Origin: Parcubacteria group bacterium Gr01-1014_31
GTDB taxonomy: Bacteria; Patescibacteriota; Patescibacteriia; Buchananbacterales; GWA2-38-13
Reading direction: 5' to 3'
Length of the DNA stretch: 64,000 nucleotides
Assembly (NCBI GenBank): GCA_007376135.1
Contig: VMFR01000001.1
Span: 9,259-73,258 of the forward strand
The number at the start of each line of letters is the position of its first letter. Within the stretch, counting starts at the first letter, position 1. The translations under genes and the position numbers were made by a program. Under the pieces are notes generated by a model that searched no databases, was not told the origin of the DNA, and was given only the letters and a program-made list of their open reading frames with translations. Shown here one piece after another: positions 4,050 to 58,441 of the stretch.

Positions 4050-4058
4050 CGTAGCGTT

Positions 4059-4086
4059 CAGCCGCCCTTTGCCGGGCGGTTTTTGT
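4059..4086 (+). terminator. rho-independent terminator after radical SAM gene
   Basis: stem CCGCCC / GGGCGG with 6-nt loop followed by TTTTT. Confidence 0.6.
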
Positions 4087-29364: not shown

Positions 29365-29379
29365 TCTGTTCTCGGCTCG

Positions 29380-29790
29380 TTATTGGGCAATCAATTCACA
29401 ATCGATGGTGCATTGGCACCATTTGTTACCAAATTCCATGGTTTTCGAAGATGCGTTACACCACCAGGCACTACCAGGGTTGTGACCTTCACATAGGCTG
29501 CCCACAGGGCAATTGTTGGAAACCTTTCCCCGAATAGTTTGGAGATTTGATTCCACTAAATTGTTTTGCTCGATTAACTCTACTTTCTGTGTAATCAAAG
29601 CTTCCCCATCCTTTTTTGCTTGGTTGAGTGCAGTATTCGTTTCCATGTACCGCTTTGTCGCTAGTTTAGACTCTCTATGAAGTGTCCCCACCCATCGGGC
29701 GAGTTGTCTATTAGTGTTCCATAATGTTACTAGTTGAGCGGAAAGAATAGCCGATCCGATGATTAGCCCTACCAAGATGATTTTTTTCAT
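29380..29790 (-). CDS. low-GC island gene 1: N-terminal TM anchor, coiled-coil region, C-terminal 6-Cys module (C-x5-C-x10-C-x13-C-x-C-x3-C)
   Basis: ORF track; local GC ~42% versus ~65% genome; paralogue of next gene. Confidence 0.55.
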   Translation of the reverse strand: MKKIILVGLIIGSAILSAQLVTLWNTNRQLARWVGTLHRESKLATKRYMETNTALNQAKKDGEALITQKVELIEQNNLVESNLQTIRGKVSNNCPVGSLCEGHNPGSAWWCNASSKTMEFGNKWCQCTIDCELIAQ

Positions 29791-29816
29791 AACTTTGTTC
29801 TGATTTATTGCTACCT

Positions 29817-30260
29817 TTAGCGTTCGGATGGCCGGGAAGCCACCTCACATTCTTCGGTGCATGTGCAGAAATTTGGCGCAAGCCCACGATCTACATAGTT
29901 CCCATTCTGGTCACACCTGAAACCAGAACCTCGGGTTTTACCTCTACAGCTATTTTCTTTGAGACAAATTATGGGCGTGGGGCTAGTTAAATTTTCATAG
30001 AATTTTACCCCAGCTGAGTTGCCCTCTAGAGATTGGCGAAGCGAAGTTATTTCACTCGACAACAGTGCATTTGAGGTTTGTGTAGCCTTGAGGTTCTGTT
30101 CAATCACCTGAGTTTCTAGGCCTAATGTTTCACGGTAACGGAGCAATGAATCAACGGTTGAAAGGAATATGTTATTATTAAGTGCGAACACTAACGTAAA
30201 AGCTGCCAAGAAAACAATGAGTGTACCGAACATCCCGATCCAGGCGTCGATTATTTTCAT
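29817..30260 (-). CDS. low-GC island gene 2: paralogous TM anchor + coiled coil + 6-Cys module (C-x5-C-x10-C-x15-C-x-C-x3-C)
   Basis: start at ATG 30260 (MKIIDAWIGMFG...); same Cys framework as gene 1. Confidence 0.55.
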   Translation of the reverse strand: MKIIDAWIGMFGTLIVFLAAFTLVFALNNNIFLSTVDSLLRYRETLGLETQVIEQNLKATQTSNALLSSEITSLRQSLEGNSAGVKFYENLTSPTPIICLKENSCRGKTRGSGFRCDQNGNYVDRGLAPNFCTCTEECEVASRPSER

Positions 30261-30315
30261 AGAAATACTTGTGAGGAGTAACAATTCACCTTCATCCTAG
30301 CATATTTTTTCTGAC

Positions 30316-45074: not shown

Positions 45075-48000
45075 ATGTCGTTCGTCCACCTCCACACGCA
45101 CTCGCACTACAGCTTACTTGACGGCTTGTCCAAGATCGACGAACTGGTCGGGCTGGCCAAGAAATTCGGCATGCCTGCCGCTGCGCTGACGGACCACGGG
45201 GTGATGTATGGGCTCGTGGAATTCTACCAGAAATGCAGCAAGGCCGGCATCAAGCCTATCCTCGGGGTGGAGGCATACCTGGCCAGGAACCTGCATACGG
45301 ATAAACGGCCCAAGCTCGACGACAGTCCCTATCACCTGCTGCTGCTCGCCAAAACCGACCAGGGGTACCGCAATCTCATTAAACTCACGACCATCGCGCA
45401 CCTGGAAGGGTTTTACTACAAGCCGCGCGTGGATTGGGCGCTCATCGAGCGGTACCACGAGGGAATCATCGCGACCTCCGGCTGCCTGCAGGGGGAGCTG
45501 GCGCGCCAGCTGGTCAGCGGCGACTACGAGGGCGCCAAAAAAGTGGCCCGCCGCTACCTGGAAACGTTCGGCCGCGGGAATTATTTCCTTGAGGTGCAGC
45601 ACCACCCCAACCTTCCCGAGCAGGGCGTGGTGAACGCCGGCGTGTTCAAATTGGGCGCAGCACTGGACATCCCGGTCGTGTCGACGGCGGATTCGCACTA
45701 CCCGACGACGGACGACGCGTACGCGCAGGATGTCATGATCTGCATCCAGACCAAGAAGGTCCTGTCGGATACCGACCGCATGACGATGGTCGGTGGCGAC
45801 TACTCGTTCCAGTCGCCCGACGTGATGCGGTCGCATTTCCCCGACCATCCCGAGGTCGCCGACAACACGTTGAAGGTCGCCGAGTCCTGCCAGGTGACAC
45901 TGCAGTTCGGTAAGTCGCTGTTGCCGCACTTCGTGGTGCCGTCCGGCATGGGGACGGATGACTACCTGGCGGAACTGTGCCGTCAGGGGTTGGGTGACCG
46001 TTACGGGGCCCAGGCCGAAAGCCGCGAAGTGCAGGAGCGGTTGACCTACGAGCTCGAGGTCATCAAAAAGACCGGCTACGCCTCCTACTTTCTTATCGTG
46101 CAGGATTTCATCAACTGGGCGAAGCGCAACAAGGTCGTCGTCGGCCCGGGCCGCGGGTCGGCGGCCGGCAGCATCGTCGCGTACTTGACGCGCATCACCG
46201 ATATTGACCCCTTGCGCTACCAGCTCATCTTCGAGCGGTTCCTCAACCCTGAGCGCATCTCCATGCCCGATATCGATTCCGATTTCGCCGATCATCGCCG
46301 CGATGAGGTGCTACAGTACGTTGCCGACAAATACGGCCGCGACCGGGTGGCGCAGATCATCACCTTCGGCACGATGGCGGCGCGCGCGTCGGTGCGCGAC
46401 GTGGGCCGGGCGATGAGCCTGCCGTACAGCTACTGCGACAAGGTCGCCAAGCTCATTCCTCCGACGCTCGACCTGGCCGAAGCTATCAAGTCGGTGCCAG
46501 AGCTGCAGGAGGTGTTGGCCGATCCGGCGGGTAAGAAACTCCTGTCCACCGCCCAGCGCCTCGAGGGCTGCGCGCGCCATGCCAGCACCCATGCGTGCGG
46601 CGTGGTCATTACCAAGGATCCGCTCGATCACTACGTGCCCCAGCAGCCGTCCACCGAGGGTACGATGACCATGACGCAGTACGAGATGCATGCCATCGAG
46701 GACCTTGGCTTGCTGAAGATGGACTTCCTTGGCCTGCGTAACTTGACGGTTATCGAGAATACGCTGGAGATCCTGCGTAAGGCGCGCGGTATCGAGATGG
46801 ACCTGAGCGCCCTGCCGCTGGACGACCGGCAGACCTTCGCGCTCCTGCAGCGGGCGGAGACCACCGGCGTGTTCCAGCTGGAATCGTCGGGAATGAAGCG
46901 CTACCTCAAACAGCTCAAGCCGTCCGAATTCGAAGATATCATTGCCATGGTTTCGCTCTACCGGCCCGGACCGATGGAGTTCATCCCCGAGTATATCGCG
47001 GGCAAACATGGTATCCGGCAGATCACCTACCTGGATCATCGTTTGGAACCGATCCTGGGGAAGACCTACGGCATCGCCGTCTACCAGGAGCAGATCATGG
47101 TTATTGCCCGGCAGCTGGCCGGGTTCTCCTACGGCGAGGCCGATGTGCTGCGCAAGGCGGTGGGCAAGAAGATCGCTCACCTGCTGGCCGAGCAGGAGGA
47201 AAAAATGGTCGCCGGGATGGTGAAGAACGGCATCAAACAGTCGGTTGCCAAAAAGATCTGGGATTTCATTTTGCCGTTCGCTCGCTATGGGTTCAACCGG
47301 TCGCACGCCGCCTGCTACGCAACGGTCGCGTACCAGACCGCGTACTTGAAATCGCGCTACCCGGCCGAATTCATGGCGGCGCTGCTGACCGGCGACCAGG
47401 GAGATATCGACCGGGTCGCCATCGAAGTGGAGGAGTGCCGCCAGATGGGCCTGACGATCTTGCCTCCGGATCTCAATGAAAGCTTTTCATCGTTCACGGT
47501 GGTCTACGATACGCCGGAGGTTCTTCGGGACAAGGCCAGCACCACCATCCGTTTCGGGTTGACAGCCATCAAGAACTTGGGTGAGAACGTGGTGAAGGCC
47601 ATCATCCGTGAGCGCAAGGAACACGGGCCATACGCGAACCTGGAGGATTTTTTGAGCCGCGTAAAAACCAAGGACCTGAACAAAAAATCCCTCGAAGCGC
47701 TGGCAAAATCCGGCGCGTTGGACCGTTTCGGCGAGCGTAACCTCCTGCTGTCCAACCTCGACAATCTGCTGTCGTTCCTGAAGTCCGTCAACGACGAACT
47801 CTCCAGCCAACAGGGGAGCCTGTTTTCCAATCTCGCCCAGTCCAGCACCCTGCCGAAGCTGCGCCTGGAGCCGGTGGAACCCGCGACCGATCGGCAGAAG
47901 GTCTCTTGGGAGCGCGAACTGCTCGGATTGTTCCTCTCTTCTCATCCTTTGAAAGCATTCACCGCCGTGCTGCGCAACCAGGCCATACCGCTGACCGAAC

Positions 48001-48620
48001 TTGCCAATACTCCCGACCTGGTCGGCCGGCCGGTGACGGTTGCCGGGGTGATCGGGACCATCAAGCGGGTCATCACGCGCCGGGGCGAGCAGATGATGTT
48101 CGCCAAGATCGAAGACCCAACCGGCGCGCTTGAGGTACTGGTGTTCCCAAGTATTCTCCAGCAGGACCCGTCCGTCTGGCAGGAGGACGCGGTGGTCGCG
48201 ATGCGCTGTCGGCTATCGGATAAGGATGGGGAGACTAAGCTCATCTGCCAGCGCGCGCTGGCCTTAACCGAAGAGACGGCCGTGGACGTGCTACAGACCC
48301 TCGCCCAAGAGGTGGATGACCGTCCGCTGGGCAACGGGTTTGGACGCCGGACCGTGGCGGCGGCACCGGCAACCACGGTGGTGGAACGCGGTACGGCCTA
48401 TCTGACCGTGCCCGCCACGATGGACCGGCAGGCCATTGCCACACTCAAGGAGCAACTCAGCCATTATCCGGGAGCCTACCGCGTCTGCCTGATGGTGGAA
48501 AGCGAGCGTGGTTTTAAAAAGATCGTGACCAGCTATCTGGTTTCCGACCGCCCGGCGTTGCGGGATGAATTGTCCGCGATCCTCGGACCGCAGGCGGTGC
48601 GGTTCGAGGACGCGGCGTAG
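45075..48620 (+). CDS. dnaE: DNA polymerase III alpha subunit
   Basis: PHP domain HLHTHSHYSLLDG, polymerase core, OB-fold; start ATG 45075. Confidence 0.95.
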   Translation: MSFVHLHTHSHYSLLDGLSKIDELVGLAKKFGMPAAALTDHGVMYGLVEFYQKCSKAGIKPILGVEAYLARNLHTDKRPKLDDSPYHLLLLAKTDQGYRNLIKLTTIAHLEGFYYKPRVDWALIERYHEGIIATSGCLQGELARQLVSGDYEGAKKVARRYLETFGRGNYFLEVQHHPNLPEQGVVNAGVFKLGAALDIPVVSTADSHYPTTDDAYAQDVMICIQTKKVLSDTDRMTMVGGDYSFQSPDVMRSHFPDHPEVADNTLKVAESCQVTLQFGKSLLPHFVVPSGMGTDDYLAELCRQGLGDRYGAQAESREVQERLTYELEVIKKTGYASYFLIVQDFINWAKRNKVVVGPGRGSAAGSIVAYLTRITDIDPLRYQLIFERFLNPERISMPDIDSDFADHRRDEVLQYVADKYGRDRVAQIITFGTMAARASVRDVGRAMSLPYSYCDKVAKLIPPTLDLAEAIKSVPELQEVLADPAGKKLLSTAQRLEGCARHASTHACGVVITKDPLDHYVPQQPSTEGTMTMTQYEMHAIEDLGLLKMDFLGLRNLTVIENTLEILRKARGIEMDLSALPLDDRQTFALLQRAETTGVFQLESSGMKRYLKQLKPSEFEDIIAMVSLYRPGPMEFIPEYIAGKHGIRQITYLDHRLEPILGKTYGIAVYQEQIMVIARQLAGFSYGEADVLRKAVGKKIAHLLAEQEEKMVAGMVKNGIKQSVAKKIWDFILPFARYGFNRSHAACYATVAYQTAYLKSRYPAEFMAALLTGDQGDIDRVAIEVEECRQMGLTILPPDLNESFSSFTVVYDTPEVLRDKASTTIRFGLTAIKNLGENVVKAIIRERKEHGPYANLEDFLSRVKTKDLNKKSLEALAKSGALDRFGERNLLLSNLDNLLSFLKSVNDELSSQQGSLFSNLAQSSTLPKLRLEPVEPATDRQKVSWERELLGLFLSSHPLKAFTAVLRNQAIPLTELANTPDLVGRPVTVAGVIGTIKRVITRRGEQMMFAKIEDPTGALEVLVFPSILQQDPSVWQEDAVVAMRCRLSDKDGETKLICQRALALTEETAVDVLQTLAQEVDDRPLGNGFGRRTVAAAPATTVVERGTAYLTVPATMDRQAIATLKEQLSHYPGAYRVCLMVESERGFKKIVTSYLVSDRPALRDELSAILGPQAVRFEDAA

Positions 48621-48665
48621 TTTTCCCCTTGCGCCGAACGCCGTTGGGCGGCACACTACTAGAGT

Positions 48666-49811
48666 ATGGCAACTTCTGACGCGCCGCGGGTCACTCGCGG
48701 GTATCTCATTTTCGGACTCCTGTTCGCCGCCGCCGGCGTGGGTTTGTGGGTGCTTTTATCCAGCTCATTGTACGGTCGCGCCGAGATCATCGTGACGGCG
48801 GCGCAGACCCGGGCGAGCGGCGAGTATTTGGTGGTCATTCAGGACGGTGTTGGCGCGTCGGATGTGCCTGACCCGCAGGTGGTGCCGGGACGCATCCACG
48901 AGCAGACCTTCGACGGCAGCCAAACTTTTACGGCGAGCGGCAGAGTGCCCCGCACCTTGGATACCATTGGCGACGTGACCCTGCGCAACACGAGTTCCCG
49001 CAGCCAGACGCTGGTGGCAACCACTCGTGTACTGGCGCCCGACGGTACGCTTTTGCGCTTGAAGGACCGGGTGGTGGTACCGGCGAACGGCACGGTGAAG
49101 GCCGCCGTCTACCCCGACAAACCCGAAGCCTTCCGGCAGTTGGCGCCCACTCGGCTGATCATTCCCGGGCTGCCGGTCAGCCAGCAGGCCCTGATCTACG
49201 GTGAGACCTCCGAGTCCCTGCCGTCCGGCGGCGGCGAGGTTCCCGCAGTGACCGTGGAAGACCTAAAGAACGCGGAAGCGGCCCTGGTGAAGTCGTTGAG
49301 CCGGGAAGCGCTGGAACGGTTCGATGGCCTGCTAGCCGAGCGGGAAAAGTTATACAGCAAGATGGTCCACAAGGAGGTCGTCGCCAGCACCGCCGACGCG
49401 AAGGCCGGCGACCAGCTGACCGAATTCACCGCGACTTTGACGCTGAAGGTCGTTGCGTTGGCGTTCGACGAGGTCCGTTTGAGCGGGCAGGTGCGCCAGC
49501 ATTTGAGCGAGCAGCTGCCGTTCACTCATGAGCTGGTCGCGCTGGACCCGTCCAGTTTGAAGTATGAAACCCAGCGGTATGATCCGGTGCGCAAAGAGGT
49601 GACGCTGAAGGTCTACGCCGAGGGGCAATCGGCCCTGAAGCCTGGCAGCGCGCTTCTTAATCCGTCCGCCATGGCCGGACTGACAAAAGCGCAGATTCAG
49701 ACATTCTTCCAACGTTACCCCGAAGTGAAAAGTGTTGAGGTGCGTTTCAGTCCCGAGGGTTTGCCCCGCGCTCCGCGGTCCGCCAGCCGCATCACCTTTA
49801 CCGTGCGATGA
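48666..49811 (+). CDS. membrane-anchored hypothetical protein (381 aa)
   Basis: N-terminal TM YLIFGLLFAAAGVGLWVLL; ATGA overlap with next gene. Confidence 0.45.
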   Translation: MATSDAPRVTRGYLIFGLLFAAAGVGLWVLLSSSLYGRAEIIVTAAQTRASGEYLVVIQDGVGASDVPDPQVVPGRIHEQTFDGSQTFTASGRVPRTLDTIGDVTLRNTSSRSQTLVATTRVLAPDGTLLRLKDRVVVPANGTVKAAVYPDKPEAFRQLAPTRLIIPGLPVSQQALIYGETSESLPSGGGEVPAVTVEDLKNAEAALVKSLSREALERFDGLLAEREKLYSKMVHKEVVASTADAKAGDQLTEFTATLTLKVVALAFDEVRLSGQVRQHLSEQLPFTHELVALDPSSLKYETQRYDPVRKEVTLKVYAEGQSALKPGSALLNPSAMAGLTKAQIQTFFQRYPEVKSVEVRFSPEGLPRAPRSASRITFTVR

Positions 49812-50569
49812 AGCGCCGCGCCGCGTGGACCAAGGCTCAACTGGCGGCTCACCTGGCCGCCGCGCGCCTGTTGGAGCAGGTGCGCGACGAGGTCTGGTGG
49901 TATTTGCGTTCGCAGCGGCGGGCCAGCGAGCGCGCAACGCAGGAGTTCGTGCTCGGCCGTTTCCGCCGTTACGGGTTGCGGAACGAATTGTCGCGGCCGA
50001 TCGTCGCATTTGGCGCTCATACGGGCGAGGTGCACTATTTCCCGCCCGCTCGCGGTTCGGCCCGTTTTCGCCGCGGGACCTGGGTGCTTTTGGATCTGTG
50101 GGCCAGATTGCAGCAGCCGGGAGCACCGTACGCGGACGCCACCTGGATGGCTTGGTACGGCTCACGCGTGCCGACGAGATTGGCGCGGGCATTTGCCGCG
50201 GTGCGGGCGGCGCGCGATGCGAGCCTGCGCTATTTGCTGACACAGACCGCGTCGGGGGCGGTTCCCAGTGGAGCGGCCCTGGATGGGGTCGCCCGTCGGT
50301 CGCTGCACCGGGCCGGCTTCCGCGGAAAATTCACTCACAGTCTTGGACATAGTCTGGGGCTCCACGGACCGCACGGGAGTCAGGGGCCGCTTTCGCCAAA
50401 AAATCCGAAATCCTTGGTCCCGGGTGTCGGGTATACGATCGAACCGGGCATCTACCTGCCGGGCCGCTACGGTGTGCGGCTGGAAATGGACCTGATGTTG
50501 ACCTCCGAGCGGCAGGTCATCGTGACCACCGCGCTGCAGCAGAATATCATCCGGCTTTCGGCCGGATAA
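49808..50569 (+). CDS. M24-family metallopeptidase catalytic domain (Xaa-Pro aminopeptidase/creatinase-like)
   Basis: HSLGHSLGLHGPHG and GYTIEPGIYLPGRYGVRLEMD pita-bread motifs. Confidence 0.65.
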   Translation: MKRRAAWTKAQLAAHLAAARLLEQVRDEVWWYLRSQRRASERATQEFVLGRFRRYGLRNELSRPIVAFGAHTGEVHYFPPARGSARFRRGTWVLLDLWARLQQPGAPYADATWMAWYGSRVPTRLARAFAAVRAARDASLRYLLTQTASGAVPSGAALDGVARRSLHRAGFRGKFTHSLGHSLGLHGPHGSQGPLSPKNPKSLVPGVGYTIEPGIYLPGRYGVRLEMDLMLTSERQVIVTTALQQNIIRLSAG

Positions 50570-50608
50570 AAAAAGACCGGCGTGAGCTCGTGTGAGCTCC
50601 CACCGGTC
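50568..50608 (-). terminator. intrinsic terminator (minus strand) for small gene D
   Basis: GACCGG...CCGGTC stem with internal GTGAGCTC repeats, followed on minus strand by T7. Confidence 0.55.
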
Positions 50609-50618
50609 AAGGCGAACA

Positions 50619-50828
50619 TCAGAGGATGTGGGAGAACCCCACGATCTTCTCGGCACGCTGGCCGCAGGCGAGGCATACCCACCGTACGCAGCGGGCGAAC
50701 ACTCGGACCCCACGCAGGGTCACTTCTCGCGGCCCCCAATGCTGGAGGCGAACCTTGCCTGTCGGATGCTCGCAACTACAGGGCGGCTCCTCCTCGTTCG
50801 CTTTCGGCGACGACTCCTTGTGGAGCAT
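50619..50828 (-). CDS. 69-aa Cys-rich protein (CSC ... C-x4-C-x2-C)
   Basis: ATG 50828 with AGAGGG SD; consensus promoter upstream; MLHKESSPKANEEEPPCSCEHP...CVRWVCLACG. Confidence 0.45.
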   Translation of the reverse strand: MLHKESSPKANEEEPPCSCEHPTGKVRLQHWGPREVTLRGVRVFARCVRWVCLACGQRAEKIVGFSHIL

Positions 50829-50875
50829 GGCACCCTCTGGTGAAAAGAACCCAGTCAGACCCAATGTGCTCCGGT

Positions 50876-50904
50876 ATACTACATAGTTTTTGAACCATTG
50901 TCAA
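50876..50904 (-). promoter_or_regulatory. sigma70 promoter TTGACA-N17-TAGTAT (minus strand) for gene D
   Basis: plus TGTCAA 50899-50904 and ATACTA 50876-50881. Confidence 0.55.
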
Positions 50905-51162
50905 GGGGGGAGGGCAGCATCGCCGTCTCGGTTTGACAGTCGTTTCACTCCTGCGCTATCGTTCAGCTACCGGTGATTGGGGCGGTTACCAACCCCCACC
51001 TCGTCGACATGGCGGGGCTTCCTAATAAGGGACTAAGCCGGGCATAAAGAGCGGTCCCGTTTTGGCGGGACAACTTGGGTGGAACCGCGGGAGATTTGCC
51101 TCTCGTCCCAATATCGCCAGAAGCGTGGCGGTTTTGGAACGGGAGGTTTTTTGCAACGACGT

Positions 51163-51699
51163 ATGCGCGTGCCGACCCTAAAAAAAACGGACGTGACGTT
51201 GCGGCCCCTGCGGGTTTCCGACGCGCCGGCGTTTTGCCGCTGGCTGCAGGACCCCGAAGTCACCCGTTTTCTTAATCGGCACGAAGACCCGCCGACGTTG
51301 CGCGAGGAACGCGAGTACCTGCGAGATGAGCAGCGCCGCGCCGATCATGCGCAGTGGGGGATCGTCGTTGAACGCGAATTGGTCGGCACCGTGGCGCTTG
51401 ATAAGATCGATCGCGAACACCGTCGCGCGGTCTACGGGATCTTCATCGGCAACCCAAGATACTGGGGACAGGGATATGGAACGGCGGCTGGCCGTTTAGT
51501 GGTTCGCTTTGGTTTCCGGCAGCTTAAGCTCCAACGGATCTCTCTGCTCGTTTACGTTTATAATACCCGCGGTTATCGTTCCTACCGGCGACTCGGCTTC
51601 CGCCGCGAAGGAAGACTGCGCAACCATTTCTATCGAAACGGCACCCATCATGATGCCTTCGTGATGGGAATGCTCCGGCGGGAATATTTATCTTTATGA
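51163..51699 (+). CDS. GNAT-family N-acetyltransferase (RimJ/RimL-like)
   Basis: acetyl-CoA binding RGYGTAAGRLVV...; alternative TTG start 51151 4 nt after GGGAGG. Confidence 0.7.
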   Translation: MRVPTLKKTDVTLRPLRVSDAPAFCRWLQDPEVTRFLNRHEDPPTLREEREYLRDEQRRADHAQWGIVVERELVGTVALDKIDREHRRAVYGIFIGNPRYWGQGYGTAAGRLVVRFGFRQLKLQRISLLVYVYNTRGYRSYRRLGFRREGRLRNHFYRNGTHHDAFVMGMLRREYLSL

Positions 51700-52094
51700 A
51701 TTTGTCAAGCAATATAAATAGTATTTTATTACTTAGGGGCAGCGTAATTGCCGCTACCGATAAATTATTATTTTGGAGGCGATGGGGTGAGCTAGAGTTA
51801 TATCAGGAGGGGATTTTATTAAAGTTAGCATCGCTTTGGTTTATGAGTTTCTTTTTCCATAAACATGACATAGTTTTTGAAATAAATAAAAAGGATATTA
51901 TTCAAGTCGGCCGAATTAGCAATATTTTCATTCTCTTTTGGCTTCAGGGTATATCTGCGTTTTATATTAAATATATGGATAAAGAGCATCGGGTTAAAAA
52001 ATTTACCGTGGTCTGTGGATGGTTATTCAGTGGCGTTAAAGCCGATGAGGAATGGATAAGTAATTTTAAAAAGATAGGAGTTAATGTTAAATAG
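51696..52094 (+). CDS. extremely AT-rich (~33% GC) 132-aa hydrophobic protein, start overlapping GNAT stop (ATGA)
   Basis: ORF track; sharp compositional break 51700-52100 versus ~65% GC flanks. Confidence 0.4.
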   Translation: MNLSSNINSILLLRGSVIAATDKLLFWRRWGELELYQEGILLKLASLWFMSFFFHKHDIVFEINKKDIIQVGRISNIFILFWLQGISAFYIKYMDKEHRVKKFTVVCGWLFSGVKADEEWISNFKKIGVNVK

Positions 52095-53913
52095 TATTTC
52101 TATGCCAAAAGAAAAAAACGTTAACCCACCGGTAGCATTGGAGGCCATGCGGCATTCGTTCGCCCACGTGCTGGCGCAGGCGGTGCTGCAGTTGTACCCG
52201 GACGCCAAACTGGCGATCGGGCCGGTCATTGACGACGGTTTTTACTATGATTTCGACCTGGGCCAAGGCAAAACGTTCACTCCCCAGGACCTGCCGAAAC
52301 TGGAGAAAGTGATGAAAAAGATAATCGCCCAGAGCCAGAAATTCGAGCGCTACGAGGGTGGGGTGGATGAATCAATCGAGTATCTACAAAGTAAGCAGCA
52401 GCCCTACAAGGTGGAATTGGCGCAAGAGCTGAAAGCGGCGGGAACGGCCACCGTGAGCTTTTACCGCAACACCGACCCGGCCGGCAAAAAACGTTTCTTC
52501 AATGACCTGTGCAAGGGGCCGCATGTGGCGTCGACCAAGGAACTGGGGGCGTTCAAACTGATGTCCATCGCCGGCGCCTACTGGCGGGGGAGTGAGAAGA
52601 ACGCGATGCTCCAGCGCATCTACGGCGCGGCTTTCGCGACGCAGGAGGAACTGGATGCGTACCTGGAGCGGCGTAAGCTGGCGGAGGAACGCGACCACCG
52701 GAAGATCGGTTTGCAGCAGCAACTGTTCTTCATCGACGAGCGGGTGGGCAAGGGGCTTCCGCTGTGGCTGCCCAACGGCACCATCATCCGCGACGAATTG
52801 GAACGCCTGGCGAAGGAGACCGAGGCGCGGTACGGCTACCTGCGCGTCAGCACGCCGCACCTGGCCAAGGAAGAGCTCTACCTGACCTCCGGGCACCTGC
52901 CCTACTATCAGGGGAGCATGTACCCGCCGATGGTGATGGACGACGGGACCTACTACTTGAAGGCGATGAACTGCCCGCACCACCACCTTATTTTTCAGCA
53001 GCAGCTGCGCAGTTACCGCGAGCTGCCCCTGCGGCTGGCCGAGTATGGCGTGTGCTACCGCAACGAGCTGTCCGGGACGCTCGCCGGCCTGCTGCGCGTG
53101 CGCATGCTGACCATGAACGACGCGCACATCTACTGCCGCAAGGAACAGATCAAGAAGGAATTTGCCAAGGTGCTGGAAATGGTGCTGTATTACTTCAAGT
53201 TGTTCGGGTTCAAGGAATACTCATTCCGGCTCTCCCAGTGGGACCCGACGCATGCGGATAAGTACGTCAACCAGCCCCAGAACTGGGAGTACAGCCAGCG
53301 GGTGTTGCGGGAGGTCCTGGAGGAAATGCAGGTGTCCTACGCGGCGGTGGATAATGAGGCGGCGTTCTACGGACCGAAGATCGACGTGCAGTTCAAGTCG
53401 GTCATCGGCCGGGAGGAAACGCTTTCCACCATCCAGCTTGATTTTCTTGCCCGTGAACGGTTCGGGTTGTCCTATGTCGATGAACACGGCACGCGCAACA
53501 GCGAGGTGTTCGTCATCCATCGCGCGCCGTTGTCCGTGCACGAGCGGATGGTTGCGTTCTTGACCGAACACTACGGAGGGGCGTGGCCGGTGTGGCTCGC
53601 GCCGGTCCAGGTCCAGGTCATCATGGTGTCGGAAAAGTTTGCCGATGCCGCCCGCAGCGTCGCGGCAACGCTGTCCGCTGCCGGGCTTCGCGCGAAACTG
53701 GACGACGCGGATGAAACGGTGAGCAACAAGATTCGCCAGGCCGAGCAGGCCAAAGTGCCGTTCATGGTGGTGATCGGCGAGAAGGAAGCGGCGGCGGGAA
53801 CGCTGGCGGTGCGGACGCGGGGTGGCCGCCAGCTGCAGACCTTGAAGGCCGATGAGTTCACGGCGATGGTAACGAAGCTCGTTCAGTCCCGCGCGGAACA
53901 GTGGTCGGCATAA
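52084..53913 (+). CDS. thrS: threonyl-tRNA synthetase lacking N-terminal TGS domain
   Basis: N2 domain MRHSFAHVLAQAV..., class II core, anticodon-binding domain; alternative starts at 52102/52147. Confidence 0.9.
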   Translation: MLNSISMPKEKNVNPPVALEAMRHSFAHVLAQAVLQLYPDAKLAIGPVIDDGFYYDFDLGQGKTFTPQDLPKLEKVMKKIIAQSQKFERYEGGVDESIEYLQSKQQPYKVELAQELKAAGTATVSFYRNTDPAGKKRFFNDLCKGPHVASTKELGAFKLMSIAGAYWRGSEKNAMLQRIYGAAFATQEELDAYLERRKLAEERDHRKIGLQQQLFFIDERVGKGLPLWLPNGTIIRDELERLAKETEARYGYLRVSTPHLAKEELYLTSGHLPYYQGSMYPPMVMDDGTYYLKAMNCPHHHLIFQQQLRSYRELPLRLAEYGVCYRNELSGTLAGLLRVRMLTMNDAHIYCRKEQIKKEFAKVLEMVLYYFKLFGFKEYSFRLSQWDPTHADKYVNQPQNWEYSQRVLREVLEEMQVSYAAVDNEAAFYGPKIDVQFKSVIGREETLSTIQLDFLARERFGLSYVDEHGTRNSEVFVIHRAPLSVHERMVAFLTEHYGGAWPVWLAPVQVQVIMVSEKFADAARSVAATLSAAGLRAKLDDADETVSNKIRQAEQAKVPFMVVIGEKEAAAGTLAVRTRGGRQLQTLKADEFTAMVTKLVQSRAEQWSA

Positions 53914-53944
53914 AAAAAGCAGCCACCCTACCCAGCGTGGCTGC
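53912..53944 (-). terminator. intrinsic terminator (minus strand) overlapping the 3' end of the basic-protein gene
   Basis: GCAGCCAC / GTGGCTGC stem, followed on minus strand by T7. Confidence 0.5.
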
Positions 53945-54449
53945 CACAGGGGTCCTGGAGGCGGTGCTCTTTGACATAGAGCAGCGCGTGCAGGAACGTG
54001 CAGCGGAGGGCGCGGGAGACTCGCGTAAGGAAGTAGTGCGTGGTCATCATCTGCCGCCAGATCCCTTCGATGGCAGGGGAGGCGATGCGGTGGCTGGGTA
54101 CGTGCGGGGAGCGCTTGAGCTCCCGTTCCAGCCGGGCCAGCAGCCGGCGCTGGGTGATGACGCGCTCTTTGCGGTAGCGCAATCCGGAAAACAGCTTGAG
54201 CTGCGCCCTACCGACGATGAGCCGCCGTTCGGTATCGTAATCCCAGCAATCCTCCGCCGGACAGCGCCGTTTGAGACGCCGCACCGCGTGATGGCGGTCG
54301 TCGCTGTTCGCGAAAGTGAGCGCGTACAGGTCGGTACGCTCTTGGAATTCGGCCCGGAATGTCTTCCTGGCCTCGGCGCGCGCCAACCGGCGCCGTCGTT
54401 TGCACTTCTTCGACCCTCCGGAAAAAAGGTGCGAGCGTCGTGGTGCCAT
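53928..54449 (-). CDS. 173-aa Arg/Lys-rich hypothetical protein
   Basis: ATG 54449 with AAAGGAGGA SD 5 nt upstream and TTGACA-N17-TATGTT promoter; no family recognised. Confidence 0.55.
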   Translation of the reverse strand: MAPRRSHLFSGGSKKCKRRRRLARAEARKTFRAEFQERTDLYALTFANSDDRHHAVRRLKRRCPAEDCWDYDTERRLIVGRAQLKLFSGLRYRKERVITQRRLLARLERELKRSPHVPSHRIASPAIEGIWRQMMTTHYFLTRVSRALRCTFLHALLYVKEHRLQDPCGSHAG

Positions 54450-54491
54450 CGGAGTCCTCCTTTCTGGCAGTAGGACGCGGTTGCCGCCCCA

Positions 54492-54520
54492 AACATAATG
54501 CGCGTGCCAGGTTTTGTCAA
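54492..54520 (-). promoter_or_regulatory. sigma70 promoter TTGACA-N17-TATGTT (minus strand)
   Basis: plus TGTCAA 54515-54520 and AACATA 54492-54497; divergent from miaA. Confidence 0.55.
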
Positions 54521-54532
54521 CTCCATGGTGCT

Positions 54533-55501
54533 ATGGCAGGACTGCCAAGGGTGATCGTCGTGGCGGGCCCGACCGGGTCGGGGAAGACCAGGCTGGCCGT
54601 TGCTTTGGCGCGCCGTTTTGGTGGGGAGATCATCTCCGCCGATTCCCGCCAGGTGTACCGCGGAATGGATATCGGCACCGGAAAGGATTTGCGGGAGTAC
54701 GGGGCAAGAATTCAAAGGGCAAGGGGCAAAAGGGAAAAGTTGGGAGCTGATTTCAAAAATTCATTCGTGCCGTACCACCTGATCGACGTGGTCGGCCCGC
54801 GGACCCATTTTACCGTGGCTGATTTTCAACGACGGGCGTATCGCGCCATCGGGGATATTGTGCGGCGCGGGAAATTGCCGATCATTTGCGGTGGGACCGG
54901 GTTGTATGTGGATGCAGTGGTGAAGGGGTACCGTTTCGGAGCAGCAAGAATCAAGAAACAAGAATCAAGGAAGTTGCGGCAGCGGGTCGAACGGTTATCA
55001 ACGCGGCAGCTCTTGGAACTTCTAAAAAAGATCGACCCGGTGACCTATCGGGTCATCGACCGGCGCAACCGGCGGCGGGTGCAACGGGGAGTGGAAATTT
55101 ATTACGCCACCGGCCGCCCCAAGTCGCTGGCGCTGGCGGCCCAGGCGCCGCAGTATGATTTTTTACAGCTGGGTATTCGCGTACCATCGGCGCAGCTGTA
55201 CCGGCGGTTGCATCGCCGTCTCGAACAGCGGCTGCGCGCGGGAATGATCGGCGAAGTACAGCGGCTTCATCGTTCGGGAGTCTCCTGGTCGAGGCTGGAA
55301 ACGTTCGGGTTGGAATACCGCTGGGTCAGCCGCTATCTGCGCGGGCAAGCCAGCCGTTTTGAACTTGAGCGCGGGCTTTTTTCCGATATCAAACAATTTT
55401 CACGGCGGCAGATGACGTGGTTTCGGCGGAATACGGAGCTGCGATGGGTGGCAAGCCTTCGCGGCGCCACGGCCTCCGTACGACGCTTCTTGCGTCAATA
55501 A
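54533..55501 (+). CDS. miaA: tRNA dimethylallyltransferase
   Basis: P-loop VIVVAGPTGSGKT, ISADSRQVYRGMDIGT; start ATG 54533. Confidence 0.9.
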   Translation: MAGLPRVIVVAGPTGSGKTRLAVALARRFGGEIISADSRQVYRGMDIGTGKDLREYGARIQRARGKREKLGADFKNSFVPYHLIDVVGPRTHFTVADFQRRAYRAIGDIVRRGKLPIICGGTGLYVDAVVKGYRFGAARIKKQESRKLRQRVERLSTRQLLELLKKIDPVTYRVIDRRNRRRVQRGVEIYYATGRPKSLALAAQAPQYDFLQLGIRVPSAQLYRRLHRRLEQRLRAGMIGEVQRLHRSGVSWSRLETFGLEYRWVSRYLRGQASRFELERGLFSDIKQFSRRQMTWFRRNTELRWVASLRGATASVRRFLRQ

Positions 55502-55533
55502 AAAGAGGCCCCGCCAGCGGATCACCGGCGGGG
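55499..55533. terminator. hairpin CCCCGCC / GGCGGGG shared by miaA end and the minus-strand small gene (T-tract on minus strand)
   Basis: 7-bp GC stem, 11-nt loop, flanked by A/T runs. Confidence 0.45.
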
Positions 55534-55554
55534 AAAGGTCGGGAGGTGACACAA

Positions 55555-55716
55555 TCATTCGATTGTGTCGTCTTCGTCATCATCGGGGTCATCACCGATA
55601 TCGATATCGGGCGGCGGGTTGTCGCCCGGGGATCTGGGTGGCGGGCCCTGAGGACGCAGCGGCTTGGGTTGGGGAAAGAGCGGTGAGGAAAGCTGAGGGT
55701 CTTTACCGGGCTTCAT
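55555..55716 (-). CDS. 53-aa Pro-rich / acidic small protein
   Basis: ATG 55716 with GGAGGA SD; MKPGKDPQLSSPLFPQPKPLRPQGPPPRSPGDNPPPDIDIGDDPDDDEDDTIE; low complexity. Confidence 0.3.
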   Translation of the reverse strand: MKPGKDPQLSSPLFPQPKPLRPQGPPPRSPGDNPPPDIDIGDDPDDDEDDTIE

Positions 55717-55885
55717 GGGGTCCTCCTTCGGTGAATGTGATATGGATCACCGACACCCTACGCCGTCGTTGACCCGTCGTCAAGTGCGCGCAGTCCGTAT
55801 TTACATCCGTGCGAGTATTTGTTACCATCTATTTTTGTACCCGTTCGTATTTTGGAGTATTCAATCCCGTGGTTAAGGAGGTTGC

Positions 55886-56167
55886 GTGGCACATTACCAT
55901 CTGACGGCGGCCGATTTCCGCCGTCTTCACGATAGTAAACGGCACCAGCCATGCCTGCTGCCGTTTGGGTTCTTTTCCCGCGAGCGGTTGGAGGAGATCG
56001 CTGCCTACAGCCGGTGCGCTTGGCAAGTCGAGGAGTTTTATTTCTGGTTCCCGGATTGTCCGGATGCCGACACGGTGCTCAGCCACCTGTCCCGCCCGCC
56101 GTTCAGCGCCGTCATTCCCGATGGCCGCACAAGTGATCAGCGGCTTACCAGCCTGCTCGATCCGTGA
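55886..56167 (+). CDS. 93-aa hypothetical protein
   Basis: GTG start 4 nt after AAGGAGG; followed by strong terminator. Confidence 0.5.
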   Translation: MAHYHLTAADFRRLHDSKRHQPCLLPFGFFSRERLEEIAAYSRCAWQVEEFYFWFPDCPDADTVLSHLSRPPFSAVIPDGRTSDQRLTSLLDP

Positions 56168-56182
56168 CCTTTTTCATACGAT

Positions 56183-56216
56183 ACGGCGCCACCTAGGTGG
56201 CGCCGTTCATTTTTGT
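56183..56216 (+). terminator. rho-independent terminator
   Basis: perfect 11-bp stem ACGGCGCCACC / GGTGGCGCCGT, 3-nt loop, TCATTTTTG. Confidence 0.75.
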
Positions 56217-56230
56217 CCAGACTTGGCGGG

Positions 56231-56659
56231 CTATTTTTCTTTGAAAAAGGTATCCACCGCCGGACGGTGCCAGGGCAGGAAGCGGAAGCGGCGGTAGTTG
56301 CGCCGGTTCAGCCAGGCATAGGATTCTTGGTGTTTGCCCAGCCGGACGCTGCCCTGACGCAGGTCGCAATGATACCCGACCAGCAGGACCCCGGCCTTTC
56401 CGGGGGCGCGGTGTTTGTAGACGACGAATGGTTGACGGATGCTGACCTTGGCGCGACTGCCGATCTCTTCATGGAGTTCGCGCCGTAGCGCGGTGGTGAG
56501 CGGTCGGGGAAACTCCCGGTGCTCCACGCGTCCGCCCGGCAGGTCCCACCCGTTTTTTCCTTTGCCGCGGATGACCAACAGCCGCCCCCGGGGGTCGGTG
56601 ATGAAGCATTTCAGCGCAACTTGGCACAGCTGGTGCCGTCGCGGTGTACGTTTTTTCAT
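56231..56659 (-). CDS. NUDIX hydrolase
   Basis: Nudix box GGRVEHREFPRPLTTALRRELHEEIG; start ATG 56659. Confidence 0.8.
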   Translation of the reverse strand: MKKRTPRRHQLCQVALKCFITDPRGRLLVIRGKGKNGWDLPGGRVEHREFPRPLTTALRRELHEEIGSRAKVSIRQPFVVYKHRAPGKAGVLLVGYHCDLRQGSVRLGKHQESYAWLNRRNYRRFRFLPWHRPAVDTFFKEK

Positions 56660-56748
56660 ATCAGCAGTATACCACGCAACCACTCGGCCGAAAAAAGAAC
56701 CCGCCGTAGATGACTTGGCGGGGTGTGTCGCATCGGCTTGATGATGCG

Positions 56749-56889
56749 TTAGGGTAACCGCCGAAGAATCCGGCGGCAGAAGGATTTTACGGCCCAGATG
56801 AAGAGCAGAACGGCGGCGCAGACGGCCAAGCCAATGAACGCCGACCACGGGTTGTTGGCCAGGGCCTCTTCGGTAACGGCAAGGAACAC
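56749..56889 (-). CDS. 46-aa hydrophobic peptide translationally coupled downstream of gatB
   Basis: AGGAGG overlapping gatB stop, 6 nt, GTG; one TM helix then RRILRRLP. Confidence 0.3.
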   Translation of the reverse strand: MFLAVTEEALANNPWSAFIGLAVCAAVLLFIWAVKSFCRRILRRLP

Positions 56890-56899
56890 GTTGTACCTC

Positions 56900-58441
56900 C
56901 TAGGGTTTGAGTTGCTTGACCAGGTGTTCTTTTACGATCGCGGGGTCAGCCTTGCCTTTTGCTTGTTTCATGACCTGCCCGACGAGAAACATGATCGCGG
57001 CTTCCTTGCCATTGCGGTAGTTGGCAACCGCCTCCGGGTTTGCCGCAACGACCGCGTTGATGATGTGCTCAAGGTCGGCGCCGCTCGCGGACTGGTCCAA
57101 GCCGCCGGCCTCAATGATCTGCGACGGGTCCTGGCCGGTGCGGTACATGATTTCCAGCACTTGCTGGGCGATGGTCGAGTTGATCTTGCCGTGGCCCAGG
57201 ATGGTGATGAATTCGGCGAAATTCTCCGGGGTCACGCGGCAGGCGGAAATCTCGGTCTTGTCGGCATTGAGCAGCGCGCCCAGCCGGTTGACCAGCCAGT
57301 TGACGACGACTTTGGTAAGTTTCCTGGTTTCGCTCGCTTCCTGCGCGTCGGAGTGCTGAGGCAGCGCATCCACCCACCCGCCGAGTTCCGACATCACGCG
57401 TTCGAAGTAGTCGGCCAGCTGCGGATCGTCGGTGAGCAGCCGAGCTTCCGCGGCGGTGAGCCCGTACTCTTTCGCATAGCGCGCGCGGCGAGCGATCGGC
57501 AGTTCCGGCAGCTGGGCCCGCAAGGTTTCTAGGTCGAATCCGCCGACCGCGCCGGGGGAGAAATCCAGCGGCGGAAGGTCGGGTTCGGGGAAGTAGCGGT
57601 AGTCATGCGCCTCTTCTTTCGTGCGTTGCTCCTCGGTCACGCCGGTCGCATCGTTCCAGCCGCGGGTGGTTTTGCCAGCCTCTTTGCCGGTACGGCCATC
57701 TTCGCGGTATTCGGTAGTCTGCCGCTTGATCTCGTACTGCAATGCCCGTTCCAGCGCTTTGAACGAGTTCATGTTCTTGACCTCGACGATGGGAGTGGCG
57801 GCTATTTTTTCTCCCCGCGCGTCCAATTCCCAAAGGTTGACGTTGGCGTCGCAGCGCAGGTGGCCTTTCTCCATGTCGGCGTCCGATATTTTCAGCGCGC
57901 GCATGATCAAACGAAGCTCCTGGAGGAAGATCTTGGCTTCCAGCGGAGAGCGAAGGTCGGGTTCGCTGACGATCTCCATCAGCGGCGTGCCTGCGCGGTT
58001 GTAGTCCACCAGCGTATGGCGGCCGTCGGGCGCGTGGATGTTCTTCGCGGCATCCTCCTCCAGGTGGATGCGGCGGATGTTGATGCGCCGAAGAACTCCG
58101 GCCTCATCGGTCACCTCGAGAAACCCGTTGACGGCGATCGGCTGGTCGTACTGCGAGATCTGGTAGCCCTTCGGCAGATCGGGGTAGAAATAGTTTTTGC
58201 GGTCGAATTTGGATTGCGGCGGTATCTGACATTCCAGCGCCATGCCCGCCAGAGCTGTCCAAACGATGGCTTGGCGGTTGGCGACCGGCAGCGTTCCGGG
58301 ATGACCCATGCACACCGGGCACACCGTGGTGTTGGCCGGCAGTTCTTCTCCCCGGTTGTCGCAGCCGCAGAACATCTTGGATTTGGTCTTCAGCTGAACG
58401 TGGATCTCCAGGCCGATGATGGGCTGCAAAGTGGTTTTCAT
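56900..58441 (-). CDS. gatB: aspartyl/glutamyl-tRNA amidotransferase subunit B
   Basis: N-terminal IIGLEIHVQLKTKSKMFC, GatB catalytic and YqeY-like C-terminal domain; start ATG 58441. Confidence 0.9.
   Translation of the reverse strand: MKTTLQPIIGLEIHVQLKTKSKMFCGCDNRGEELPANTTVCPVCMGHPGTLPVANRQAIVWTALAGMALECQIPPQSKFDRKNYFYPDLPKGYQISQYDQPIAVNGFLEVTDEAGVLRRINIRRIHLEEDAAKNIHAPDGRHTLVDYNRAGTPLMEIVSEPDLRSPLEAKIFLQELRLIMRALKISDADMEKGHLRCDANVNLWELDARGEKIAATPIVEVKNMNSFKALERALQYEIKRQTTEYREDGRTGKEAGKTTRGWNDATGVTEEQRTKEEAHDYRYFPEPDLPPLDFSPGAVGGFDLETLRAQLPELPIARRARYAKEYGLTAAEARLLTDDPQLADYFERVMSELGGWVDALPQHSDAQEASETRKLTKVVVNWLVNRLGALLNADKTEISACRVTPENFAEFITILGHGKINSTIAQQVLEIMYRTGQDPSQIIEAGGLDQSASGADLEHIINAVVAANPEAVANYRNGKEAAIMFLVGQVMKQAKGKADPAIVKEHLVKQLKP

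Follow-up and report, generated by a model that had tools for sequence, protein, structure and literature searches.

The genome of Parcubacteria group bacterium Gr01-1014_31 carries a short, AT-rich open reading frame (ORF) between a gene for a GNAT acetyltransferase and thrS, the gene for threonyl-tRNA synthetase (ThrRS). The three genes lie in a stretch of 64,000 nt (contig VMFR01000001.1 of assembly GCA_007376135.1, positions 9,259 to 73,258 of the forward strand), which we refer to as the window and whose own numbering is used throughout. All three are read from the plus strand. The GNAT gene (51163..51699) encodes 178 aa, the AT-rich ORF (51696..52094) encodes 132 aa with a pI of 9.55, and thrS (52102..53913) is counted from its MPKEK start. 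The ATG of the ORF (51696-51698) overlaps the TGA stop codon of the GNAT gene (51697-51699), giving the ATGA at 51696-51699 that an earlier note on this DNA had pointed out, and the ORF closes with a TAG at 52092-52094, 8 nt before the thrS ATG at 52102. The same note described the end of the ORF as overlapping the annotated thrS start; this is correct for the longest thrS ORF, which begins at ATG 52084 and shares 11 nt with the AT-rich ORF, but the conserved start is the ATG at 52102.

The GC content of the ORF is 32.8%, compared to an average of 61.2% for the 64-kb window. Among 300-nt windows, which vary with a standard deviation (sd) of 4.9%, the minimum over all 64 kb is 31.3%, at 51801, more than 6 sd under the window mean, so that the AT-rich stretch of about 400 bp reported earlier is real. 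Its flanks are GC-rich, as also reported, but not uniformly close to 65%: they range from 52 to 66%, and the last ~225 nt of the GNAT gene are likewise lowered in GC because this end of the gene is part of the imported patch described below. Stop codons are common in DNA as AT-rich as this 405-bp segment, and in 20,000 dinucleotide-preserving shuffles of it the longest open run averaged 54 codons (sd 13), reaching 131 codons only twice. Together with the finding of a homologue, P0059, these results argue that the ORF is a genuine coding gene and that its open frame is not due to chance. GenBank annotates only an 83-aa, C-terminal version of the product (TSC76878.1), and an exact-product look-up of this 83-aa protein (P0001) returned no gene record. 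The homologue alignment begins at residue 12-13, far ahead of the start chosen in GenBank, and so favours the 132-aa form. The database entries would thus need two corrections: the AT-rich gene encodes 132 aa, not 83 aa, and thrS probably starts at 52102.

We located GNAT homologues of 45-79% identity on contigs from other genomes and metagenomes. Every homologue examined with 45% identity or more, together representing at least eight related lineages, is encoded directly upstream of thrS and without the AT-rich ORF; GNATs that are no more than 38% identical no longer have this adjacency. The wider neighbourhood is mostly kept as well and comprises dnaE, a 381-aa gene, an M24 peptidase gene, the GNAT gene, thrS, a ~170-aa gene on the opposite strand and miaA. 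Apart from the ~170-aa gene, these are common to the loci L001, L003, L008, L010 and L064 of relatives, except that the M24 peptidase gene is absent in L010. In L001, L003, L008 and L064 the GNAT gene abuts or overlaps thrS with no gene between them (the genes called in L001 overlap by 23 nt), and in L010 the two are separated by ~100 nt of palindromic, AT-rich DNA. Alignment A1 places 405 bp of the window (51698-52102) where L003 has 20 nt, and neither tblastn nor blastn detected remnants of the ORF at the relatives' junctions in 66 loci. These comparisons indicate that the AT-rich ORF is an insertion of foreign DNA, found in this lineage only and absent from the junction in all relatives examined. 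The foreign origin suspected earlier from base composition is upheld by this absence from the syntenic junction, and also by the position of the ORF within a recombination patch whose flanks stem from a different lineage.

This patch became apparent when the insert was removed from the alignment. The window is then 93-100% identical to L001 over the leader upstream of the GNAT gene (a T-box, described below), the first two-thirds of the GNAT gene and thrS from 52145 on. In between, at 51470-52140, sliding identity to L001 is only ~60%, and in the patch tract identity to L003 is 85-93%, up from 50-70% elsewhere. We additionally scored the window as L001-like or L003-like at informative sites, that is, positions where L001 and L003 differ. 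The L001-like sites outnumber the L003-like ones by 106 to 3 at 51163-51473 and by 620 to 24 at 52144-53910, and the ratio is 13 to 79 at 51474-52143. The split inside the patch (13:79) thus differs strongly from that outside it (726:27; Fisher's exact p = 4e-73). With breakpoints taken from alignment A1, the patch spans ~670 bp (51474..52143) and consists of the 3' end of the GNAT gene (51474-51697, 224 bp), the AT-rich insert (51698-52102, 405 bp) and the first ~41 nt of thrS. These mosaic alignments identify the window as the recombinant, with an L001-like backbone and a ~670-bp patch from an L003-like relative that already carried the AT-rich gene. Because the 3' end of its gene lies in the recombination patch, the GNAT protein has only 79% identity to that of L001, compared to 96% for ThrRS. 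Over 46422-57157 of the window, genes upstream of the operon are 86% identical to those of L001 and genes downstream 77.5%, with 93-100% for the block from the T-box through the 5' part of the GNAT gene to thrS; either stronger constraint on the operon or a recent exchange of the whole operon could account for the higher identity of this block.

The arrangement is present in a second assembly. Contig k139_137563 of ENA ERZ27284378 (134 kb, with MEGAHIT-style naming) is 100% identical to window positions 46163-56699 (10,537 bp), insert included; the NCBI contig that carries the locus is 539 kb long. The 83-aa and 178-aa products, both of which depend on the junctions of the insert, are found without any change in a Logan record as well.

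A repeat search identified a perfect 12-bp direct repeat, TAAATAGTATTT, near both ends of the insert on the plus strand, with the left copy at 51715..51726, the right copy at 52088..52099 and a spacing of 373 nt. The right copy holds the last Lys codon and the TAG stop of the ORF, and its AAATAGT end also closes the P0059 gene. The two copies lie 18 nt inside the left insert junction and 3 nt inside the right one, and from base composition ~0.04 such 12-bp repeats are expected by chance within 600 nt. Inverted repeats at the insert ends are weak, the best one having 15 nt at 80%. No integrase or transposase was found among the called genes within ~5 kb, and no further copy of the insert is present in the 64-kb window. 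When the insert was searched against Rfam at a permissive threshold, only chance-level entries were returned (CRISPR-DR14, E = 1.4; U7, E = 1.6), and a reading of the insert as a riboswitch or leader was rejected. The segment is also not a conserved non-coding leader of thrS, as the earlier note had allowed for: the real leader lies upstream of the GNAT gene.

When 1.84 billion cluster representatives were searched exhaustively with HMMER, a single homologue of the ORF product was recovered, the 123-aa protein P0059 (E = 1.6e-5, 29% identity), which aligns over ORF residues 13-132. The two proteins share, among others, the blocks G-x-LELY and VF-x-I-x-KK-x-II-x-VG and a C-terminal W-x-x-x-FK-x-IGV-x-VK. 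Neither the single sequence nor a two-sequence profile retrieved anything beyond P0059 and its variant P0060 when 5.8 billion protein clusters were searched by a word index, and the same holds for degenerate-pattern and tblastn scans of viral, genome and metagenome contigs and for tblastn searches of phage and plasmid collections. The family therefore comprises, among ~15 billion proteins, the window ORF and one other cluster (P0059/P0060). The contigs with P0059/P0060 come from several sequencing runs, and the neighbours of the gene there encode a cyclase on one side and glucose-6-phosphate isomerase on the other, with no GNAT gene adjoining. It is AT-rich in these genomes too (GC 0.30 vs ~0.43) and is bracketed by 35-nt direct repeats, of which the left one overlaps the end of the cyclase gene. 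Between the loci L005 and L065 the small gene is 99.4% identical in its body (316/318) and the adjoining cyclase gene 70%, with a sharp breakpoint near codon 18. Sequence comparison thus points to a genuine, extremely rare family, formed by P0059/P0060 and the window ORF, that has been exchanged repeatedly between diverged genomes. At the two loci just compared (L005 7934-8420, L065 ~940-1480) the direct repeats measure 35-45 nt including the cyclase 3' end, and contig L005 ends just past the right repeat. L005 and L065, like L003, L064 and L066, derive from the sequencing runs SRR22387xxx-SRR22388xxx.

The ORF product gave no family match in Pfam (E <= 10), PHROGs, PADLOC, NCBIfam or PDB sequences; entries for DUF4258 (E = 0.21) and TraB (E = 0.12) were at noise level. 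The earlier description of the product as hydrophobic is borne out in a mild form (GRAVY, the grand average of hydropathicity, is 0.24), but there is no convincing membrane helix. A membrane protein was rejected, as the highest 19-residue hydropathy value is 1.42 and this peak is not conserved in the homologue. HUH (IS200-like) and PD-(D/E)xK motifs were likewise considered and rejected, their candidate residues not being conserved between the two subfamilies when alignment A3 was inspected by eye. By eye, the product may tentatively be likened to a PH-like (bPH/GRAM-like) beta-sandwich with a C-terminal helix, for which Pfam gave no match.

In the window, the GNAT gene and thrS belong to an operon with a leader of its own. 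A promoter-like site (TTGACA, 18 nt, TATCGT) lies at 50933..50962 on the plus strand and is kept in L001; it is a match from a consensus scan and not proof of function. It is followed on the same strand by a T-box leader at 50968..51153, recognized from an Rfam RF00230 match, its motif, its specifier and its terminator. The RF00230 match at 51044-51110 (E = 3.8e-6, 37 bits) is under the gathering score of 93 and aligns only the 3' half of the model. The T-box core GGGTGGAACCGCG at 51077-51089 is conserved in six loci, and the invariant TACCAAC at 50987-50993 holds a putative Thr specifier ACC (50988-50990) followed by a purine, a combination of ACC (Thr) and purine that is conserved in seven loci. 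A terminator hairpin at 51098-51147 (-31.9 kcal/mol, z = -5.05), followed by U6, stands ~10 nt before the GNAT ATG. In the relatives, the T-box motif and the ACC specifier are found upstream of the GNAT gene in L001, L003, L006, L024 and L025 and as a variant in L010, and the leader is absent from L008 and L064. RF00230 scores in the relatives are 30-37 bits, far under the gathering score, with L006 and L024 aligning across the full model. We conclude that the leader is a divergent Thr-specific T-box, in which both a predicted antiterminator/terminator and a predicted specifier can be recognized.

Several observations on the leader may be added. Its Stem I is apparently short, it precedes the GNAT gene rather than thrS, and it has been kept in a Parcubacteria clade and lost in the L008/L064 lineage. 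In the relatives it lies at ~4780-4990 in L001, ~3790-3990 in L003, 1119-1271 in L006, 795-992 in L024 and 2516-2590 in L025. A search of the available literature for T-boxes with the Candidate Phyla Radiation (CPR) or Patescibacteria, and for a T-box with GNAT and thrS, found nothing.

The GNAT protein is a complete domain whose best Pfam match is Acetyltransf_3 (PF13302, E = 2.6e-26, 93 bits) and which we class as RimJ/RimL/SpeG-like; the 3' third of its gene is within the imported patch. Its best NCBIfam matches are SpeG, PseH and AAC(6'), all under their cut-offs, and it has no PADLOC match, in libraries that contain no dedicated TacT/AtaT model. ThrRS has editing, class II core (catalytic) and anticodon-binding domains (Pfam PF07973, PF00587, PF03129), and an N-terminal TGS domain gave no Pfam match in ThrRS of the window or of the relatives. 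The protein, of 603-609 aa, begins directly in the editing (tRNA_SAD) region, and the 586-606 aa proteins of the relatives have the same three Pfam domains. The MPKEK start at ATG 52102 is conserved in L003, L006 and L025. Reading the sequence, we noted an alternative start borne by the insert (52074..52086, plus strand), in which AGGAG at 52074-52078 stands 5 nt upstream of ATG 52084; ThrRS would be six residues longer from there. The relatives have no equivalent of it. In the conserved C-terminus of the family, I-G-V encodes the AGGAG, and a Val-to-Asn difference from P0059 creates ATG 52084; speculatively, this signal inside the 3' end of the ORF may be an adaptation. The thrS gene call in the identical ENA contig (L004) uses the insert-derived ATG 52084, and the relatives support ATG 52102.

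No terminator-like site and no plus-strand promoter-like site was found between the GNAT start and the thrS end, so the GNAT gene, the ORF and thrS would form one T-box-controlled transcript. Across the homologues described above, the RimJ/RimL/SpeG-like GNAT gene is conserved as the operon partner upstream of thrS, which it often overlaps, and the pair is under predicted tRNA-Thr control in most lineages among L001, L003, L006, L008, L010, L024, L025 and L064. That an acetyltransferase and a tRNA synthetase are linked in this way may be of greater interest than the ORF inserted between their genes. The conserved operon of Thr-specific T-box, GNAT gene and thrS raises the question of what role a RimJ/RimL-like acetyltransferase has under the control of tRNA-Thr.

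The junction between the GNAT gene and thrS has received other DNA elsewhere. In L006 and L007 it holds a different AT-rich gene (GC 0.32 vs 0.53-0.61) encoding 215 and 203 aa, respectively. Its product (L006 1861-2508, L007 953-1564) is hydrophobic in an N-terminal segment, contains a low-complexity stretch rich in Asn and Lys, and weakly matches Ivy, a lysozyme-inhibitor family. Two repeats bound the gene, one direct (9 bp, GTAAATTTG) and one inverted (11 bp, AGCTTACGCAA/TTGCGTAAGCT). L006 and L025 are only 72-78% identical, too little for the L006 insertion to be fine-mapped against L025. In L006, ~100 nt of non-coding DNA lie between the inserted gene and thrS. In addition, AT-rich (0.28-0.31) palindromic mini-elements of 100-200 nt occupy the junction in L024, L025 and L010. 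Foreign DNA is thus present at this junction in 5 of ~9 lineages, which argues for a permissive, recombination-accessible site rather than for a gene with a specific affinity for GNAT. As a recurrent landing site for AT-rich DNA, the junction is a handy marker locus for gene flux in the clade.

The mini-elements lie at ~1600-1760 in L024, ~3195-3300 in L025 and ~4560-4650 in L010, and L003 has a similar palindromic insert at ~4000-4075, downstream of the T-box terminator and ahead of the GNAT start. They measure 85-200 nt, resemble hairpins of the miniature inverted-repeat transposable element (MITE) or repetitive extragenic palindromic (REP) kind, and differ in sequence between lineages. The window itself has a second low-GC island at 29370-30300 (0.41-0.47 vs 0.61) with two small minus-strand genes, of 136 and 155 aa, whose products have a hydrophobic N-terminus, a mid-region that looks coiled-coil-like by eye and a Cys-rich C-terminus. 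By eye, it lies between rsmI-like and metG-like genes and so also adjoins an aminoacyl-tRNA synthetase gene.

Taken together, our results make it probable that the AT-rich segment was acquired laterally, as a single-gene cassette that travels as a passenger of the operon and is not a component of a GNAT system. The host operon would consist of the promoter, the Thr-specific T-box leader, the GNAT gene and thrS, with the cassette placed exactly at the GNAT/thrS junction. The cassette arrived by homologous recombination with DNA of an L003-like Parcubacterium that already carried it, the arms being provided by homology in the 3' end of the GNAT gene and the 5' end of thrS and the traces being left in the patch at 51474-52143. 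Its insertion did not take place in this genome; the original one, in the donor lineage, may have left or used the 12-bp direct repeat. The ORF has no recognisable promoter or ribosome-binding site of its own, and is predicted to be transcribed from the T-box promoter only when tRNA-Thr is uncharged and to be translated by coupling to the GNAT gene through the ATGA overlap. Translation of thrS would follow by re-initiation at 52102, 8 nt downstream, or from the insert-borne AGGAG and ATG 52084. The process invoked is a known one, the lateral gain of an orphan gene by recombination in conserved flanking genes, and the protein family is new and uncharacterised. Parcubacteria are uncultured and reduced in genome, and to our knowledge their routes of gene exchange are poorly documented; the patch offers recent homologous recombination between lineages at base-pair resolution, on evidence that is unusually clean for a CPR genome.

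Several points weigh against this interpretation. The left boundary of the insert can be drawn in two ways, with 405 bp in place of ~20 nt or with 373 bp added together with a 12-bp duplication; in the latter case the first ~7-10 codons of the ORF would be host-derived. No L003-like genome with the insert, that is, no donor, was found in any collection searched. Another possibility, unlikely in our view, is a strain-level assembly chimera that switched twice within 670 bp; the second assembly may share the same reads. The search for homology and structure that the earlier note had called for yielded one homologue, and the structural half of it failed: AlphaFold2 gave predicted local distance difference test (pLDDT) values of 45 for the single sequence, modelled as all-helical, and 38 for the two-sequence alignment, modelled unreliably as a few strands with a C-terminal helix, and the two models disagree and are unusable. 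A soluble binding or inhibitor (immunity-type) accessory protein is what we would tentatively guess the product to be, since the family is readily exchanged between hosts and the other gene at the same junction has a weak Ivy match; our confidence in this guess is low. Finally, codon-position GC of the ORF is flat (0.36/0.28/0.35), and the intact frame could reflect recent arrival rather than selection in the host.

An alternative that we regard as unlikely, although less so than the others, is that the insert is an inert passenger or a translational bridge: foreign DNA whose protein has no role in the host and whose frame is open through recency or because ribosomes have to pass from the GNAT stop to the start of thrS if this essential gene is to stay translated. 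Besides the flat codon-position GC, it is favoured by an ORF that runs through the insert, from the end of the GNAT gene to the beginning of thrS, by the lack of an obvious Shine-Dalgarno sequence before thrS in the relatives, by the overlap of GNAT gene and thrS in L001, which fits coupling, by a GC content that has not drifted towards the host value and so points to recent transfer, and by the ORFan status of the family. Set against this is the long-term conservation of the protein, which at 29% identity retains shared blocks over nearly its whole length, in a gene family that persists in several samples. Nor is unbroken translation obligatory, given the ~100 nt of non-coding DNA before thrS in L006, and the insert brings its own AGGAG and ATG for thrS.

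A selfish element of the homing type is improbable. Here the ORF product would be a new site-specific nuclease or recombination factor that copies itself into empty junctions and drags its flanks along. The position between conserved genes with donor flanks of 224 bp and 41 bp, resembling co-conversion, would suit such an element, as would its sporadic distribution, the direct repeats near both insert ends, the homologue that is 99.4% identical between hosts next to a flanking gene at 70%, and the absence of any other mobility gene nearby. However, no profile library contains a nuclease, recombinase or HUH signature for the product, and the two subfamilies, compared by eye, do not share PD-(D/E)xK-like or HUH-like residues. 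The breakpoint inside the gene in L005/L065 is that of ordinary recombination between carriers, not of homing into an empty site, and the unrelated cargo found at the same junction in other lineages speaks for a permissive site and not for a site-specific agent. We give equally little credence to the broader proposal that the family is the active part of a class of minimal selfish single-gene mobile cassettes in CPR bacteria with a previously unknown DNA-targeting activity. If it were true, there would be selfish cassettes of ~400 bp with short direct repeats, inserted just downstream of conserved genes, which take over the signals of the host for transcription and translation and pass from one diverged relative to another, their flanks being co-converted.

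An assembly artefact, in which a metagenomic chimera has taken in DNA from a strain that co-occurred with this one, or from some unrelated AT-rich organism, is very improbable. The source is a metagenome-assembled genome and the patch is a mosaic of strains, as an artefact would be, but the NCBI and ENA contigs agree completely over 10.5 kb and the Logan record holds both junction-dependent products. The segment is internal, with in-frame functional gene ends on both sides; the domain encoded by the GNAT gene is still complete and thrS retains the conserved start; and both switches would fall where the strains are only ~60% identical. GNAT toxins with small partners exist (TacAT/AtaRT), and this precedent, the ATGA overlap with the GNAT stop and the small size of the ORF speak for a toxin-antitoxin-like module or an acetyltransferase regulator; the earlier note had found the GNAT pairing reminiscent of toxin-partner arrangements, although of an order and size that do not fit the classic GNAT-RHH modules. 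This tempting reading is not supported and almost certainly wrong: the GNAT gene, of the Acetyltransf_3 type, occurs without the ORF and always next to thrS in L001, L003, L006, L008, L010, L024, L025 and L064, the ORF homologues are not beside any GNAT gene, the ORF has no ribbon-helix-helix (RHH)/DUF1778 or PADLOC match, and the ATGA junction sits at the left boundary of the insert, inside the recently imported patch.

The locus may also be compared with known systems. GNAT-RHH type II toxin-antitoxin modules (TacAT, AtaRT, KacAT) share with the locus a GNAT gene that overlaps a small neighbouring ORF by 4 nt. In the window, however, the small ORF is downstream and not upstream of the GNAT gene, it lacks an RHH/DUF1778 domain, the two do not co-occur in other genomes, and the GNAT protein is RimJ/RimL-like with thrS as its conserved neighbour.

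The free-standing homing endonuclease genes of T-even phages (seg/mob, intronless homing) are likewise small, AT-rich genes between conserved genes, with a sporadic distribution and co-transfer of flanks, a pattern that plain homologous recombination explains as well. Unlike these genes, the ORF has no GIY-YIG, HNH, LAGLIDADG or PD-(D/E)xK signature in Pfam, PHROG, NCBIfam or PDB sequences, it is found on a bacterial chromosome, and the exchange between L005 and L065 starts inside the gene. With integron gene cassettes the insert has in common a single promoterless ORF that relies on an upstream host promoter, short repeats near both ends, and unrelated cassettes at one site in different genomes. 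It differs from them in that no integron integrase is found among the called genes within ~5 kb, no attC-type imperfect palindrome was recognised by eye, and there is one cassette and no array.

The closest likeness is to a genomic islet, or an ORFan exchanged through conserved flanks. Neither a mobility gene within ~5 kb nor a recognised att or inverted-repeat structure accompanies the insert, which has only the 12-bp direct repeat. As in such islets, the composition deviates, the insert is absent from the syntenic site of relatives, recombination breakpoints can be placed and the flanks are mosaic, there is no mobility gene of its own, and the site is reused by different cargo. Compared to known islets, the insert is unusually small, with one 132-aa gene in 405 bp, and it lies inside a packed T-box-controlled operon, between a gene and that of an essential aminoacyl-tRNA synthetase. 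Its start and stop overlap the neighbouring genes at both ends, an arrangement that would make it fully dependent on the expression signals of its host.

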